A stretch of DNA of 64,000 nt from Escherichia coli. Its GTDB lineage: Bacteria; Pseudomonadota; Gammaproteobacteria; Enterobacterales; Enterobacteriaceae. A model generated the notes under the pieces. It was not told where the DNA came from. It saw only the letters and a list, made by a program, of their open reading frames with translations, and did no database searches. Location: the NCBI RefSeq assembly GCF_017348835.2, contig NZ_CP071375.1; one strand, 5' to 3'. Position numbers and translations under genes: made by a program. Positions 954 to 44,165 of this stretch are shown here, piece after piece (position 1 is the first letter of the stretch; each line of letters opens with the position of its first letter).

Positions 954-1057
954 ACGTTCCTCCTTTATATGAACTCACCGGAGCAGGCTCCGGTGAGGTG
1001 TTGTGAACTTAAGTCTGGACGAAATGCCCGAAAACGAAAGTTTGAGGCGTAAAAAGC

Positions 1058-6767: not shown

Positions 6768-6978
6768 GCCTGATGCGCTACGCTCATCAAGCCTACAAAA
6801 TCTATTGCAACATGTTGAATCTTCGTGCGTTTGTAGGCCGGATAAGGCGTTCACGCCGCATCCGGCATTAGGTGCTCAATGCCTGATGCGCTACGCTTAT
6901 CAGGCCTACAAAATCTATTGCAACATGTTGAATCTTCATGCGTTTGTAGGCGGATAAGGCGTTTTCGCCACATCAGGT
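6768..6978. repeat. REP/BIME cluster (tandem repetitive extragenic palindromes)
   Basis: Two near-identical ~100-bp units containing gcctgatgcgctacgct and ggataaggcgtt...gccgcatccggc motifs typical of E. coli REP elements; coordinates approximate. Confidence 0.7.
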
Positions 6979-23387: not shown

Positions 23388-24274
23388 TGCCACTGCTGGA
23401 TAAGCTGCGTGAGCAGTACGGGGTCGGACCGGTATGCAGCGAACTGCATATTGCCCCGTCAACGTATTACCATTGTCAGCAACAGCGACATCATCCGGAT
23501 AAACGCAGTGCCCGTGCGCAGCACGATGACTGGCTGAAGAAAGAGATACAGCGCGTATACGATGAAAATCACCAGGTATACGGTGTGCGTAAAGTCTGGC
23601 GTCAGTTGTTACGGGAAGGTATCAGAGTGGCCAGATGCACTGTGGCACGTCTCATGGCAGTTATGGGACTTGCCGGTGTTCTCCGGGGTAAAAAGGTCCG
23701 CACTACCGTCAGCCGGAAAGCCGTTGCCGCATGCGACCGCGTAAACCGTCAGTTCGTGGCAGAACGTCCAGACCAGTTGTGGGTGGCTGATTTTACCTGG
23801 GTAAGCACATGGCAGGGCTTCGTTTATGTGGCGTTCATCATTGATGTGTTCGCCGGATACATCGTGGGATGGCAGGTCTCATCATCCATGGAAACAACAT
23901 TCGTGCTGGATGCACTGGAGCAGGCGTTGTGGGCCCGTCGGCCGTCCGGCACAATCCATCACAGTGATAAAGGTTCTCAGTATGTATCGCTGGCCTACAC
24001 GCAGCGGCTTAAGGAAGCCGGATTACTGGCATCAACAGGGAGTACTGGCGACTCGTATGACAACGCGATGGCTGAGAGCATCAATGGTCTTTACAAAGCG
24101 GAGGTAATACACCGTAAGAGCTGGAAAAACCGGACAGAAGTGGAACTGGCCACACTAACGTGGGTGGACTGGTATAACAATCGACGATTGCTGGAAAGGC
24201 TGGGCCATATTCCTCCGGCAGAAGCAGAAAAAGCTTATTATGCTTCCATCGGAAATAATGATCTGGCAGCCTGA
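23387..24274 (+). CDS. IS3-family transposase OrfB (DDE catalytic domain; normally expressed as OrfAB fusion by -1 frameshift)
   Basis: 295-aa ORF overlapping OrfA stop in -1 frame; DDE-type integrase-core features (…HSDKGSQYVS…); A-rich run ggaaaaaataatg at the overlap. Confidence 0.85.
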   Translation: MPLLDKLREQYGVGPVCSELHIAPSTYYHCQQQRHHPDKRSARAQHDDWLKKEIQRVYDENHQVYGVRKVWRQLLREGIRVARCTVARLMAVMGLAGVLRGKKVRTTVSRKAVAACDRVNRQFVAERPDQLWVADFTWVSTWQGFVYVAFIIDVFAGYIVGWQVSSSMETTFVLDALEQALWARRPSGTIHHSDKGSQYVSLAYTQRLKEAGLLASTGSTGDSYDNAMAESINGLYKAEVIHRKSWKNRTEVELATLTWVDWYNNRRLLERLGHIPPAEAEKAYYASIGNNDLAA

Positions 24275-24366
24275 GTTCACAGATAAAACACTCTCCAGGA
24301 AACCCGGGGCGGTTCAGTATAATGCCACTGCATAACTGATTCCCATTTCGTAGAGGCTGTTAACTC

Positions 24367-24398
24367 TGTATCAAAGTCCTGACAAAGGACTGTATCAA
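24367..24398. promoter_or_regulatory. Operator-like composite repeat upstream of the 534-aa orphan gene
   Basis: tgtatcaa AGTCCT gacaa AGGACT gtatcaa: 6-bp palindromic arms flanked by direct tgtatcaa repeats, about 50 bp upstream of the ATG; function inferred only. Confidence 0.3.
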
Positions 24399-24445
24399 GT
24401 TTCTCTACTGAAACAGCTATGCAATAGACGGAAGAATTTAACATT

Positions 24446-26050
24446 ATGGTAACTAAAAAGGTAAAAACAAACCACCCGTACTATCGTGTTTTATCTGGCA
24501 CCTCCATGCCGTTTCCCCACATACATGAAGCTGTTTCCGAACAGTTGCTTCTACTCATTTTCAAAGCACGCAGATTGTATCTGGATCCAGAATATCGTCC
24601 CTGGTTTGATGAACAACATCGGATTCTCTCGGCATTACGCGCTAACACAAAACTACAAAATATTTTAGAGCAAAATAGAGAGGACTACTCCATAGGTGAG
24701 ACCGATAATCCACTATCTAAAGAGCTGTATGCTGCTTTTCAGGTTATGTGCCATTTATACAATGGTTTTGATAACAGACTCGTCAGCCTGAAAACCTGGG
24801 GAGATATGAACAGGGAACCAACAGCAAAATTTGTCGGCCAAAATAGTGGTGGCTGGAAAACACCTGAGATGGAAGAATTCGTCAGAAACGATTTGTTCAA
24901 TATTCTGACAGATTGCAAAGCTCATTGCTCACCACTTCCCGCTCTGGTTCGACAAGGATATTGCCATCAGGATCTTTCTGTTGCGCACTCATGTACTAAA
25001 GAATTACTGGAACAACTGAACCGATACCATCAAATTGATGAATCAGCGATACTTGCCAGAACCCTTGGTTTGGCTATTAACAACTGCTATCACTCAAAAA
25101 CAGAGATTCCTGAATGGCTTTCTCCTTTTGAAAATGAATACAAAAGTCCCTGGAATTGTGAGAAACCAGATACTAACGATGTGAGTAAACTTAGAAAACA
25201 ATTGCTAACAATCGGGCGTACAGAATTCGTGGACAAAATGTTTTCGCTAGCCAACAAAAATGCAACAAAGATAATATATGATGGATACGTTAAACTTTAT
25301 GCTCTGGAAATATATGAATGGTTAAATAAATTAGTGCAATATTTTAAAGGAAATGATTTTATTCGTTACACCTGGAAATTCACAACAATTATTTCCGATG
25401 AAAGTGACACGATTGAAAACACCACCGCATGGGAAAAAGACTATTGTCAAATCACTATACAGCGCGATGAACTTCTGAAACTGATTTATACCAATACCCT
25501 GCAGGATGCAGCAATGAATCTTGCTGGTTGCCTGCAACAGGCATACATAGAACCGTTAAAAAGGGAAATAAATTATCCAGGAATAAACATTGATGCAAAA
25601 GAGCGTGAAATTAGAAAATCTATTGAATTCAGGAGCGAACTGAATAACTTCACAAACATCATGAAACAACTGGAAACATTTGAAAAATGGTATAATGCCA
25701 ATAAAATTCTGTTGGTAAGTAACAAAAAGAAACGTACAGAAAAGATTGACGTGAATATTCGTCTTGCAGGACTGAAAGGCTATGATCTGAATGAAGGTAT
25801 ACCTGATGGTCAGGGACGCAAAATTAAAGATGGTGTGAATGAACTCGTCAAGGCAGATGGCAGTCTACAACTTCCACAAGATATCAGTGACACTTCGCTT
25901 AACCGTTACCGTCAAGCAGTTCAACACATTATTAAGGATGAGATCGACACGTTGCTGATAGCACAGAGGGAAAAAAATAAAATAAATCCATATAGCGAAG
26001 ATAGATACTCTATACGACCTTTATGGGGAAAATGTCTGGTCGAACAGTAA
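24446..26050 (+). CDS. hypothetical protein, 534 aa, no recognisable family (orphan accessory gene; AT-rich)
   Basis: Long uninterrupted ORF in visibly AT-rich DNA; no P-loop, no transmembrane segments, no signal peptide by eye; Cys/His cluster CKAHC...GYCH...HSC near residues 155-185; not recognised as any K-12 protein. Confidence 0.6.
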   Translation: MVTKKVKTNHPYYRVLSGTSMPFPHIHEAVSEQLLLLIFKARRLYLDPEYRPWFDEQHRILSALRANTKLQNILEQNREDYSIGETDNPLSKELYAAFQVMCHLYNGFDNRLVSLKTWGDMNREPTAKFVGQNSGGWKTPEMEEFVRNDLFNILTDCKAHCSPLPALVRQGYCHQDLSVAHSCTKELLEQLNRYHQIDESAILARTLGLAINNCYHSKTEIPEWLSPFENEYKSPWNCEKPDTNDVSKLRKQLLTIGRTEFVDKMFSLANKNATKIIYDGYVKLYALEIYEWLNKLVQYFKGNDFIRYTWKFTTIISDESDTIENTTAWEKDYCQITIQRDELLKLIYTNTLQDAAMNLAGCLQQAYIEPLKREINYPGINIDAKEREIRKSIEFRSELNNFTNIMKQLETFEKWYNANKILLVSNKKKRTEKIDVNIRLAGLKGYDLNEGIPDGQGRKIKDGVNELVKADGSLQLPQDISDTSLNRYRQAVQHIIKDEIDTLLIAQREKNKINPYSEDRYSIRPLWGKCLVEQ

Positions 26051-26062
26051 CTCACTGAGAAA

Positions 26063-26085
26063 GGGGATAGCAGTTCGCTATCCCC
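26063..26085. terminator. Hairpin between the convergent orphan genes
   Basis: ggggatagc agtt cgctatcccc inverted repeat seen directly; no U-tract. Confidence 0.35.
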
Positions 26086-26132
26086 AAGGGAGACTTTCCA
26101 GCAAGATCTCAAAAAACGAGACACTCGGCAAA

Positions 26133-26729
26133 TTATGCGGCTTTACCATTAACAGATTCAGCCACAAGAACGACAGCGTGTCTGTTTCGCTCAGGATGTT
26201 CACTCCAGATTTCTGATTCCGGGATGCTTTTCCCGTCATAACTGATCCGTTCGCCATCAAACGGGTAATACCGTGCGGAATCAGTATCTAAAATAAACAC
26301 CTTCAGATTCGTTGAACGACGCGCAATATGCTGCCAGAGAGCTTTACCTCCTTCATATTGCTCGTTATCACTTAATAGTACAACGCCCGCTTTTGTGACT
26401 ATCGTTTCATAAACAAACGTTGCAAGACCAACATCACGTACAGCGCCATCGACAACAATCCCTTCAATCTGAGCAACATCCTGTTCTTCCCAGAATTTCT
26501 GGACAAACACGCCTTCAAGCCGGGGACGACGCTGAAGCTCCAGAGTGGCAACAACCTTATGGCGAACATCACCATCAATAACAGAAGGTGCAGCTTCGAT
26601 TACCGCAGCAAACGGAGTCTTTGGATCCCAGATGATCTGGTAAAGCACGCCCTGAATAGTTACTCCATCCAGTATCGAAAAACGACGAGCTACAGTAGCA
26701 GGGGAGTAAGACATTGGAATTACAGCCAT
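26133..26729 (-). CDS. hypothetical protein, about 198 aa (orphan accessory gene)
   Basis: Track ORF 26133..26759 starts at a GTG; the downstream ATG at 26729 (MAVIPMSYSPATVARR) is preceded by a good Shine-Dalgarno (agagggga) and is preferred; soluble protein with no recognisable motif; same strand as integrase. Confidence 0.55.
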   Translation of the reverse strand: MAVIPMSYSPATVARRFSILDGVTIQGVLYQIIWDPKTPFAAVIEAAPSVIDGDVRHKVVATLELQRRPRLEGVFVQKFWEEQDVAQIEGIVVDGAVRDVGLATFVYETIVTKAGVVLLSDNEQYEGGKALWQHIARRSTNLKVFILDTDSARYYPFDGERISYDGKSIPESEIWSEHPERNRHAVVLVAESVNGKAA

Positions 26730-26858
26730 TTTTGAATCCCCTCTGAGTAATACCGGCACGAAAATTTACCTCAATAATTATAGTAAACAATACAAGAACC
26801 AAGTGCATCAACAATACCCATCAATTGTACACAATTCGTACAGCGACCAGGAACTCCC

Positions 26859-28175
26859 TCACCTTCTGCCAAACAGATTGACAACATTATTGCCTGTTTG
26901 CTGTTGATAGTTATTAACCCGGTCCTCCCAGATCTCAAGTGCTCTGCGTTTTTCTGGCAAATAATCGTATCGATCATAATGTTTTGAACTGACATCGTTC
27001 AACGCATGATTTTGAATACGATCGCGGATTTCCTTACTGATCCCAGCTTCTCCCATTAACGTTTTACAGGTCCGACGTAAGTCACGTGCTGTAAAAATTT
27101 TAAAGTCAGGATTAAAAGCCCGGAAATACATGATAGCGCGAGCCAGACTGTCCGTACGAACCGGACGCTTACCATTAGTCGAAAGTGGAAAAATGTAAGG
27201 GCTGGATTTTTCTTTTGTTAACTCCTGCACACAGGATAATTCCTGTAATGCTGATTCAGTCAACGGTATCAAATGCTCTCGTTTATTTTTAGAGACATCA
27301 GCAGTCACCAGCAGCGTTTTTTGTTGAAAATCAACATCACACCACTGACTGGCGATCATTTCGAAGGGACGTTGCCCTCCGGTATAGATACAGAATCGGA
27401 TCAAATGTTGCATCAATAATCCAACGTTGGTTGCTTCAGCAAAATGTTCCATTAGAAAACGCAACTCTTCAAGTGTCAGCCAGGTATCACCGACTTTTTC
27501 AGCAGATGACTGTTTCGGTATCACTGACACCGGATTTGCCTCCAGCCCAAAAGTAATCCCTGCACTTGTGTTCATCGGATCGTTATCTGCTTTCAGTCCA
27601 TAGTTAAATGCAGCCATCAGGTAAGAACGGATCCGGTTAGAGTGAACCACAGCACCACGCTGAATGATCCCGGCCAGGATATGTTTAATCTGTCCGGAAG
27701 TCACATCTTTAGCTTTAGTTTCACGGGGGATCACTGTATAGCATTCATTTTCAAGGCGTTTCAGAACATCCTGCCATGTCCTCTTATTATCAATTTTCAT
27801 TTTGTTAACATAACCATGAATCAATGCTTCAAATGAGCCCTGTGATTGATGGAGTTGTATCCGCTGCTGTTCTGCAAACTGTTGTCGTTCCAGTTCTGCC
27901 TGGGGATCCTTTCCTTCAATGAGCCAGGCACCATACTTTTTTGCCAGTTCATTCGCTGTGGCCAGTTTCATCTCAGGCCATATACCCAATTGAATGAATC
28001 TTTCTTTTTTCCCTTTTTCCACGTAATAGCGGAAATAGAAAATCTTGCTGCCAGAAGACTGAACTTTGACACCAAGTCGTCCAGTGCCACGTTGAGAGCT
28101 GTTGCTCCAGACATAGAACGATGTCTTTTTTGCTTTCAATGCTCGGATGGCTGTTTCAGTAAGATTGACGGCCAT
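26859..28175 (-). CDS. int: site-specific tyrosine recombinase, P4-type integrase (N-terminal arm-binding DUF4102-like domain)
   Basis: 438-aa ORF; N-terminus LTETAIRALKAKKTSFYVWSN...YFRYYVEKGKKERFIQLGIWPEMKLATANE matches the P4/CP4-57 integrase pattern; C-terminal R...HxxR...Y-type catalytic region (ARDLRRTCKT, HALNDVSSKHYDRYDY); Shine-Dalgarno aagagg upstream; adjacent to tRNA fragment. Confidence 0.85.
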   Translation of the reverse strand: MAVNLTETAIRALKAKKTSFYVWSNSSQRGTGRLGVKVQSSGSKIFYFRYYVEKGKKERFIQLGIWPEMKLATANELAKKYGAWLIEGKDPQAELERQQFAEQQRIQLHQSQGSFEALIHGYVNKMKIDNKRTWQDVLKRLENECYTVIPRETKAKDVTSGQIKHILAGIIQRGAVVHSNRIRSYLMAAFNYGLKADNDPMNTSAGITFGLEANPVSVIPKQSSAEKVGDTWLTLEELRFLMEHFAEATNVGLLMQHLIRFCIYTGGQRPFEMIASQWCDVDFQQKTLLVTADVSKNKREHLIPLTESALQELSCVQELTKEKSSPYIFPLSTNGKRPVRTDSLARAIMYFRAFNPDFKIFTARDLRRTCKTLMGEAGISKEIRDRIQNHALNDVSSKHYDRYDYLPEKRRALEIWEDRVNNYQQQTGNNVVNLFGRR

Positions 28176-28371
28176 AGAACCTCTTTTCTAAACCAGTAAC
28201 AATCAGAATAACTCGTGATTTTGGGTCAGGTAATGGGTCAGGTAACGATCGTACAATGAAGAAAAAACGGAACCAAGCGGAGACAGAGAAAATTACATAA
28301 TTCATTGATTATAAACAACTAATAAAGCAATCGCGAACAAACAAAAACAATATAGAACGAACTTGCCTCAT

Positions 28372-28418
28372 GACTCATAATCGCTTGGTCGCTGGTTCAA
28401 GTCCAGCAGGGGCCACCA
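28372..28418 (+). tRNA. ileX: tRNA-Ile2 (ileX, anticodon CAU/LAU) 3'-terminal 47-nt fragment; island attachment-site repeat, not a complete tRNA gene
   Basis: GACTCATAATCGCTTGGTCGCTGGTTCAAGTCCAGCAGGGGCCACCA matches the anticodon loop through CCA end of ileX as I recall it; the sequence 5' of it cannot pair with the acceptor 3' strand (no GGCCCCT), so the D-arm and 5' acceptor are absent. Confidence 0.7.
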
Positions 28419-28427
28419 GATACAGTA

Positions 28428-28461
28428 AAGGCTGACGAGAAATCGTCAGCCTTTTTCTTTT
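28428..28461. terminator. Rho-independent terminator (native ileX terminator, also downstream of yqjH)
   Basis: aaaggctgacga gaaa tcgtcagccttt hairpin followed by tttcttttc. Confidence 0.6.
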
Positions 28462-28471
28462 CATATATCAG

Positions 28472-29236
28472 TTACTTCGCGTGCCAGTAAGCCGCTGCAC
28501 GTACCTGTTGAGGGTCATACTGTTCCGCTTCAAAGCGACGGCTTAAATTCTTCACCACCTTCCCTTCGCCGGTTATCCAGATGAAGTAATCATCGGCAGG
28601 GATTTGCATCTGCGCCAGACGCGCATCTACCGCCTGCTCATCATGTGCCAGCCATTCGATATTAAAACCATCAAGGTGCGCGAGATAATCCTGACAGGCG
28701 TTATCCCGCACGCTAACCAGCGCGCTAACTTGCGGTTTAACGGCAAGTTTGCTCAACGTTTCCAGGCGGCGGCGCAGTGCGGGCATTCCGGATTCATCGC
28801 AGACATACAGCTGATACGCGTAATCTTCCGGCACCACCAGCGAACCGCGCGGACCTGCCACCGTGAGTTTATCGCCCGGTTGGGCCTGCATTGCCCAGCT
28901 ACTGGCGACGCCGTCTTCGTGAATAAAGAAATCAATCGCCAGTTCATGGCGTAGTTCGTCATACAACGGCGTATAGTCACGCGACGGTGGGCGTGGTCCT
29001 TCCGGCCAGACGATGCCCTCTTCCGTTACCGTTGGCGGCACAAAGTGAGCGTCAGGTTGAGGAAAGAAGAGTTTGCTGTGATCGTCAAAGCCGCGCGATG
29101 TAAAACCGTCCAGCGCCTCGCCGCCAAGGACAATGCGCTGAAAACCGGCGCTGATACGCTCAACGCGTAGCACAGTCAGTTCACGGAACCGCAGATCATT
29201 GCGAACGCGCTGCGGGTAGCGGGGGGTGTTATTCAT
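28472..29236 (-). CDS. yqjH: siderophore-interacting / NADPH-dependent ferric-chelate reductase
   Basis: 254-aa ORF; recognised as YqjH (NfeF); FAD-binding siderophore-interacting family. Confidence 0.85.
   Translation of the reverse strand: MNNTPRYPQRVRNDLRFRELTVLRVERISAGFQRIVLGGEALDGFTSRGFDDHSKLFFPQPDAHFVPPTVTEEGIVWPEGPRPPSRDYTPLYDELRHELAIDFFIHEDGVASSWAMQAQPGDKLTVAGPRGSLVVPEDYAYQLYVCDESGMPALRRRLETLSKLAVKPQVSALVSVRDNACQDYLAHLDGFNIEWLAHDEQAVDARLAQMQIPADDYFIWITGEGKVVKNLSRRFEAEQYDPQQVRAAAYWHAK

Positions 29237-32056: not shown

Positions 32057-33571
<1,515 letters not shown>

Positions 33572-43939: not shown

Positions 43940-44165
<226 letters not shown>

Follow-up and report, generated by a model that had tools for sequence, protein, structure and literature searches.

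Islands that insert into tRNA genes are the subject of the Islander resource, in which an island restores the tDNA that it has split, so that the regenerated gene and the displaced fragment mark the two ends of the element (PMC4383910). Anticodon-centred islands, termed the 'A' class, make up 2,083 of the 3,919 islands in that collection (PMC4383910). In E. coli, ileX is a known site for integrative elements and pathogenicity islands (PMC7067040, PMC5539235, PMC7545054). The ileX elements of STEC bear an integrase, are not phages, and carry cargo of the Ag43/Cah type (PMC7067040; LAA modules, PMC5539235; reviewed in PMC7545054), and one integrative element has been described that was made by inversion between two such elements (PMC7067040).

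Two further systems are relevant here. In CP4-6, a cryptic prophage of K-12, intF lies on the minus strand and is followed, after 109 bp, by an exact 49-nt 3' fragment of thrW. In P4-type elements the core is short and lies at the T-loop/3' end of the tRNA gene, and int comes directly after the intact tRNA and reads in the same direction, an arrangement that also appears in the PE164 and F2_81 annotation.

The locus described here lies in a stretch of 64 kb of E. coli DNA, the whole of which is referred to below as the window. Its central feature, a piece of ileX next to an integrase gene, is a textbook attR of a common island and is a feature already known. We consider it very probable, taking the account as a whole, that a displaced native half of ileX stands beside an integrase-carrying island that was later split by inversion and deletion.

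The ileX fragment and its integrase

The original prediction held that 47 nt of the window are a 3' fragment of ileX followed by the native ileX terminator and yqjH, and named two findings that would speak against this: a complete tRNA at 28343-28418, and a failure of the 47-mer to match ileX when aligned with a reference. Neither was seen, and the observation is confirmed. The letters at 28372-28418, GACTCATAATCGCTTGGTCGCTGGTTCAAGTCCAGCAGGGGCCACCA, match positions 30-76 of K-12 ileX (b3069) at 47 of 47 nucleotides. In the tRNA, position 30 is the fourth base of the anticodon stem on its 5' side; the piece takes in the final 2 bp on that side, the loop CTCATAA, and all that follows through CCA. 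Comparison with K-12 ileX revealed no recognisable tRNA 5' part in the 29 nt upstream of the fragment, and ARAGORN found 0 tRNAs over the whole 64-kb window. Rfam, at gathering and at permissive thresholds, likewise gave no tRNA in the window and only noise matches over the fragment, where the permissive scan is uninformative either way, a half tRNA scoring poorly in Rfam. At the gathering threshold, Rfam also matched ES173 sRNA and naRNA4 (REP-derived) in core parts of the window, at 992-1055 (minus strand), 6836-6906, 17879-17955, and 43998-44079; these matches are unrelated to the ileX scar.

The features on the integrase side of the locus are as follows.

24446-26050, plus strand: island gene of 534 aa, found in the same island copies as the gene at 26133-26759
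26133-26759, minus strand: island gene of 198-208 aa, matching phrog_7522 (unknown function) at 2e-129
26859-28175, minus strand: int, encoding a tyrosine integrase of 438 aa and directed away from the fragment (Pfam, PHROG)
28176-28371, no strand assigned: island DNA comprising the att-site P arm and the region upstream of int, with 100% identity to F2_81 and no counterpart in the K-12 attB
28372-28418, plus strand: displaced native ileX 3' fragment (positions 30-76), the attR core, by identity with K-12 ileX
28427-28454, plus strand: native ileX intrinsic terminator, a 12-bp stem-loop and T-run, with the same sequence after ileX in K-12
28472-29236, minus strand: nfeF (yqjH), the host gene flanking attB, an open reading frame annotated as nfeF in PE164, F2_81, and K-12

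Apart from a few SNPs, the stretch from fragment through terminator to nfeF is collinear with K-12, which bears out the predicted order of native terminator and yqjH. K-12 itself carries mug-ileX-terminator-nfeF with no insert, that is, an empty attB.

The integrase gene begins 196 bp from the fragment, and a tyrosine integrase inside the island and near its att site is what Islander looks for. Pfam recognises Arm-DNA-bind_3 at residues 5-97 (1.7e-14), Phage_int_M at 115-195 (4.8e-4), and Phage_integrase (PF00589) at 232-391 (7.8e-10), giving the arm-binding, central SAM-like, and catalytic domain set by which P4-like/DUF4102 integrases are defined. Among PHROGs, the protein matches phrog_1 ('integrase') at 1.5e-45; its match to the NCBIfam integrase model PRK09692 is weak and far below the cutoff. 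In a pairwise alignment with IntF, R269, R367, H390, and Y400 fall on catalytic positions, and an arginine, R364, occupies the first His position, where most family members have His. The nearest phage integrase is that of Providencia phage PSTCR3, at 38% identity. A simple scan of the int upstream region found no sigma-70-like promoter.

Both orphan genes lie directly inside int and are present in every island copy examined. The product of the 26133-26759 gene had no match in NCBIfam or PADLOC and is assigned by phrog_7522 alone, and the gene is kept beside int in Santai, F2_81, FORC 064, and C7. The 534-aa protein gave no significant match in Pfam, NCBIfam, PADLOC, or PHROGs. The two genes thus fill an integrase-proximal cargo slot, a position in which defence genes are often found.

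Attachment-site anatomy and the regenerated tRNA

An uninterrupted form of the island is found in the sister strain F2_81, where a contiguous 32.6-kb island is bounded by the tRNA and the fragment as same-strand repeats, with int inside. Its order begins with nfeF, the fragment (plus strand), int (minus strand), the two orphan genes, an AlpA-like HTH gene, and YfjJ; continues through a type I R-M system, Cah/Ag43, DUF932, an antirestriction gene, YeeS, and YeeT; and ends with CbeA/CbtA, DUF5983, DUF957, DUF4942, the full-length tRNA, and mug. The cargo set of the CP4-type elements (CP4-6/-44/-57-like) is all present there, namely the AlpA-like HTH, YfjJ/YagK, Ag43/Cah, DUF932, antirestriction, RadC/YeeS, YeeT, CbeA/CbtA, DUF5983, DUF957, and DUF4942 genes, of which island cargo the window keeps only int and the two orphan genes. 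The element is a CP4-type integrative element, and the piece in the window is its attR.

The same precise att junctions recur in hundreds of genomes. Among 5,426 complete E. coli genomes, the junction of int, fragment, and nfeF (attR) was found, at a coverage of at least 80%, in 357, and the attL junction in 453. Eighteen genomes could be cross-matched between the attL and attR match tables, a set that is not a random sample; both island ends are on the same strand and 24-66 kb apart in 14 of these, and on opposite strands and 85-136 kb apart in the other four (PE164, FORC 064, C7, and CD45).

The att sites were compared in an alignment of attB from K-12, attL from PE164, F2_81, and FORC 064, and attR from the window, F2_81, and Santai. 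The block of identity between attL and attR covers tRNA positions 30 to 76, and 43 of its 47 positions are identical, with all 4 differences in the T-arm. The first difference falls at position 50, leaving one exact segment:

28372-28391, plus strand: 20-nt block identical between attL and attR (tRNA positions 30-49), including the anticodon loop

Because the first difference is at position 50, the crossover is bounded to positions 30-49, and, as far as the alignment can tell, strand exchange must have occurred within this anticodon-loop region, a bound of 20 nt that the sequence makes no finer. The block of identity runs from the anticodon stem/loop to the 3' end of the gene, as in the anticodon-loop sublocation, and the bound on the crossover is consistent with an att site of that kind. 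The proposal that integrase-encoded recombination used the 3' part of tRNA-Ile2 is supported. The proposed 47-nt attachment-site repeat held in part: a repeat does exist at the other end of the island, but it is identical at only 43 of 47 positions, with 20 nt exact. In the window, the 47-mer occurs once when up to 3 mismatches are allowed (0 matches in 100 shuffles), so that the suggested search for a second copy found nothing there by which to delimit the island; such a search would miss the other end, since attL and attR match at only 43 of 47 positions.

The differences indicate which copy is which. From fragment to regenerated tRNA, C50U is compensated by G64A, so that positions 50 and 64 still pair, and the other two changes, G59A and U60C, fall in the T-loop. 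An E. coli T-arm and the native terminator go with the fragment; in the full-length gene, the T-arm is foreign and the terminator is another one, borne by the island. The fragment is therefore the original host copy, as had been predicted when it was taken to mark the host side of the insertion. The further expectation that a full-length tRNA is rebuilt at the other end of the island agrees with both F2_81 and PE164, and the regenerated gene is accepted by ARAGORN as a CAU tRNA. In PE164 this intact ileX (CAU) lies next to mug (751,715-751,790 of the record), with the fragment at 666,104-666,150. The concern that the strain might be left with ileY alone for AUA decoding does not apply, ileX being intact next to mug, and ileX function in the strain of the window is predicted to be retained by means of the 3' part that the island supplied. 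Taken together, the core interpretation, in which the fragment is the host-side attR of ileX beside an island integrase, is supported, also by the proposed comparison of the ileX locus with other strains, in which K-12 is empty and F2_81 has a contiguous island.

The 3' part carried by the island is not peculiar to it. In a scan of one genome per species, the island-type ileX 3' part was found at 82 loci across Enterobacterales, among them Kluyvera, Kosakonia, Atlantibacter, Edwardsiella, Serratia, Dickeya, Brenneria, and Citrobacter. Of the matches, 54 are full-length tRNAs identical at 76 of 76 positions to the regenerated E. coli gene; by nucleotide identity, the 'chimeric' regenerated ileX is the native tRNA-Ile2 of many other Enterobacterales genera. 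Since it is identical to the wild-type tRNA of related genera, the regenerated tRNA would be expected to decode normally. A further group of about 20 matches consists of attR-like fragments, whose 5' boundaries are of at least 3 different kinds. Such tRNA-Ile2 3' fragments occur in many genera, with boundaries ..ATGACTCATAA (as in the window), ..TTCTCATAA, and ..AACTCATAA. At least three distinct boundaries indicate that several integrase lineages use the anticodon-loop site of tRNA-Ile2, and the anticodon loop of this tRNA is thus a widely used integration site for several lineages of elements.

Short repeats flank both att cores:

28223-28245, plus strand: tandem GGGTCAGGTAA x2, candidate arm-type Int sites, the only exact matches in the window

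The same tandem, on the same strand, is found at the other end of the island (PE164 attL, locus L003, 16849-16871). In the window the pair is 127-149 bp from the core, on its upstream side; at attL it is 59-81 bp beyond the tRNA. Exact copies occur nowhere else in either stretch of 50-64 kb, and the observed count was reached in 0 of 100 shuffles. These tandems are probably arm-type integrase-binding sites and are put forward as candidates. The pair in the window also sits in the int upstream region, a position that could permit autoregulation.

The split island in the window and in PE164

The window and strain PE164 (NZ_CP114128.1) differ by 1 mismatch in 42.5 kb, and the larger chromosomal context can be read from that public assembly. 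The single difference is at position 32807, inside ygjG/patA, so that the window would stem either from PE164, perhaps in a different version of its assembly, or from an isolate very near to it. On the side away from nfeF, the island in the window gives way to host DNA through an IS element.

21208-22707, plus strand: pitB, which opens the core segment whose orientation is reversed with respect to nfeF, judged from its strand in comparison with K-12
22756-23006, minus strand: truncated yghT, of which the C-terminal 252 bp are left, a partial 'thymidylate kinase' without its N-terminus in the annotation
23007-24316, plus strand: IS3-family element of 1,310 bp at the rearrangement junction (Rfam, annotation)
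24317-28371, no strand assigned: island remnant of 4,055 bp on the attR side, 100% identical to the F2_81 island (locus L005, 17318-21372)

Island homology ends exactly at 24316|24317. The window from 24317 to 28500 is 100% identical to F2_81, and 20000-24316 matches gss-pitB-yghT'-IS3, which in F2_81 is ~100 kb away. The IS3-family element contains an ALIL frameshift pseudoknot recognised by Rfam (23342-23458), is annotated as a transposase with a programmed frameshift, and bears TGAACCGCCCCGG terminal repeats; we take it to be IS629/IS1203-like from its size and ends. The frameshift and terminal repeats of a simple IS3 insertion are thus present, and its target-site duplication is absent: no duplication was found at 23007-24316, where the flanks read ctt and gta and derive from two K-12 loci separated by ~80 kb. 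Because the flanks differ and are distant in K-12, the element marks a rearrangement junction rather than a simple insertion. The yghT/IS junction maps 441 bp into K-12 yghT. In K-12, pitB and nfeF are both on the minus strand, 80.7 kb apart; in the window, pitB is on the plus strand and nfeF on the minus strand. The junction pitB-yghT'-IS-island was found in PE164 only, 1 of the 5,426 genomes.

The PE164 assembly supplies the other side of the rearrangement. There, a ~100-kb segment that reaches from the region on the pheV side as far as ileX is reversed with respect to nfeF, and ileX and the fragment lie on opposite strands, 85.6 kb apart, with pitB...rpoD...mug, including dnaG, between them. 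Reading from ileX, DUF4942-DUF957-DUF5983' is followed by IS1 and then by unrelated island genes up to pheV. The ~25 kb of island interior is missing at both PE164 junctions, and with two island-interior probes F2_81 was among the best matches and PE164 was not. A complete tRNA gene and its cognate 3' fragment thus share one replicon in PE164, as Islander has it, but they do not have the same orientation with only island DNA between them, which is the state of F2_81 and of 14 of the 18 cross-matched genomes. By this failure of orientation and separation, the island in the genome of the window is a disrupted member of its group, and, being split, it should no longer be able to excise as a unit. 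Just past the ileX-side stump, after the IS1 that truncates DUF5983, lies a gene for a 2,978-aa protein with a TcdA/TcdB-type glycosyltransferase domain (PE164, locus L003, 19554-28490; FORC 064, locus L011, 7104-16040); FORC 064 also has efa1/lifA nearby.

The origin of the split is clearest in C7 and FORC 064. In both, the int-side island is complete through DUF4942 and is followed by a 3' fragment of pheV (TTCGATTCCGAGTCCGG-CACCA), the pheV terminator, and yghD with its neighbours, flipped; ileX is ~100-136 kb off, on the other strand. The pheV fragment, with one G missing, is at ~20700-20760 of locus L010 in FORC 064 and ~27730-27760 of locus L095 in C7. An island with 3' fragments of two different tRNAs at its ends is the signature of homologous recombination between an ileX island and a pheV island, and windowed identity puts the crossover close to the DUF4942 3' end. 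These junctions are direct evidence that the inversion in C7 and FORC 064 arose by recombination between the two islands. PE164 shares with FORC 064 12.8 kb of the ileX-side product, at 99.75% identity, and recombination with an oppositely oriented homologous pheV island is the most likely cause of its inversion as well. Against this stands the PE164 ileX-side stump, which is 100% identical to the F2_81 island and so does not mark its own crossover point. The junction of pitB, yghT', IS, and island probably arose by an IS-associated deletion.

Three other routes were considered and rejected. Inversion by way of the two IS3-family copies of PE164 fails in that these are direct repeats with four unrelated flanks. 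A one-step IS-mediated inversion from an F2_81-like ancestor predicts a reciprocal junction, with an IS by the HTH side, that is absent, and the second IS is wrongly oriented. F2_81 itself is not the exact state before rearrangement, its pheV island differing (Qat system, two-partner secretion genes) and its yghT::IS lacking a target duplication. The non-inverted F2_81 has the same yghT::IS junction, with other DNA on the far side of the IS, and the presence of this junction in both F2_81 and PE164 is not explained by a single vertical history.

The preferred sequence of events is as follows. A CP4-type element inserted into ileX (tRNA-Ile2, anticodon CAU) by site-specific recombination, which its own tyrosine integrase would have catalysed, its attP carrying its own copy of tRNA positions 30-76 and its own terminator. 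Exchange within positions 30-49 joined the host 5' part to the island 3' part, making a complete tRNA next to mug (attL) whose expression is predicted, and left the host 3' part, with its terminator and nfeF, as a promoterless stump beside int (attR). Inversion between the ileX island and the pheV island would have come next, and deletions last, associated with IS1 on the ileX side and with the IS3-family element on the int side, where the loss would begin in yghT and stop 130 bp ahead of the 534-aa gene.

This account must be weighed against readings in which the fragment itself means something else. Were the fragment a decayed tRNA pseudogene, the 5' end of ileX would have been lost by deletion or through an IS and the strain would use ileY for AUA. 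The window, with no complete tRNA and with an IS and a deletion 4 kb away, might look like that, but the boundary at position 30 is the same in 357 genomes and abuts integrase-arm DNA rather than an IS, the same genome holds a full ileX with the complementary island junction, and matching arm repeats stand at both ends; such decay is extremely improbable. Nor do we give any real weight to an exchange of roles, with the 47 nt beside int borne by the island and the native 3' half in the full-length gene. Identical repeats would normally be indistinguishable in this respect, yet here the copies differ: the K-12 T-arm belongs to the fragment, which runs on without a break into the native terminator and nfeF, while the T-arm of the full-length gene is absent from the empty K-12 site, is followed by the island terminator, and equals the native one in other genera.

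Other readings dispute the split. That the fragment and the full ileX are direct 47-nt repeats around one contiguous island just upstream is true of F2_81, with its 32.6 kb, and of 14 of the 18 cross-matched genomes, but is very unlikely for the window, where the island stops after 4.1 kb at the IS fused to yghT'-pitB and the 64 kb contain neither a second core (up to 3 mismatches) nor a tRNA; in PE164 the tRNA is 85.6 kb off on the other strand, and even the F2_81 repeat is 43/47. An assembly artefact at IS repeats, hiding a true chromosome that is F2_81-like with a contiguous island, would fit a junction seen in 1 of 5,426 genomes and seated at a 1.3-kb repeat of many copies. We nevertheless regard it as unlikely, because the other junction (DUF5983'|IS1) involves another element and recurs in FORC 064 (99.75% over 12.8 kb), inversions of the same kind are present in the independent assemblies of C7, FORC 064, and CD45, the absence of ~25 kb of interior is unlike a simple mis-join, and the two IS copies point the same way instead of forming inverted repeats. 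The preferred account, insertion at ileX followed by inversion and deletion, also leaves room for a more speculative sequel. The attL and attR of PE164 are inverted around the 85.6-kb rpoD/dnaG segment, which the still-intact integrase, with the recombination directionality factor of another island, could conceivably flip reversibly, though we hold this to be very improbable. If it were so, a flip between attL and attR would restore the native ileX-terminator-nfeF and the K-12 order on one side and rejoin the stumps around attP on the other. The island's own AlpA-like gene is deleted in PE164.

Comparison with described elements

Our current understanding of tRNA-targeting integrases is unaltered by this locus, and its value lies in annotation and method. 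The tRNA fragment is rightly labelled as an attR scar, not as a lost tRNA gene. The ends lie on opposite strands in 4 of the 18 cross-matched genomes, probably because ileX and pheV islands have recombined, and finders that need an exact fragment in the same orientation will miss or mis-delimit such islands.

Among described elements, the anticodon-centred islands of Islander share with this one a tyrosine integrase that splits a tRNA gene and a block of identity from the anticodon stem/loop to the 3' end. Unlike those islands, the fragment and the tDNA here are in opposite orientations, 85.6 kb apart, with the essential genes rpoD and dnaG between them, and would fail the orientation and length filter. 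CP4-6 of K-12 is similar in layout: an intact tRNA on the plus strand is followed by the TA/RadC/antirestriction end of the island on the minus strand, with int, also on the minus strand, at the far end and, ~110-200 bp past it, a plus-strand tRNA fragment from anticodon stem to CCA (49 nt for thrW, 47 here). The cargo is alike as well, with YagK/YfjJ, DUF932, RadC-like, and CbtA/CbeA-like TA genes. CP4-6 differs in its target, thrW; in its integrase, IntF being ~25% identical over the catalytic domain; in its repeat, exact at 49/49 as opposed to 43/47 here; and in being contiguous, whereas the present island is split by an inversion.

The published ileX elements are likened to this one by site and cargo, not by sequence, and the att anatomy given here is not part of those papers. 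Finally, the P4-type integrases and their islands (CP4-57 at ssrA, and the leuX and pheV islands) resemble the present element in joining Arm-DNA-bind_3 to a tyrosine recombinase core and in carrying similar cargo. They differ in the site of exchange: the pheV fragment is ~22 nt long, whereas the element in the window uses the anticodon-loop site and has its int beside the displaced fragment.
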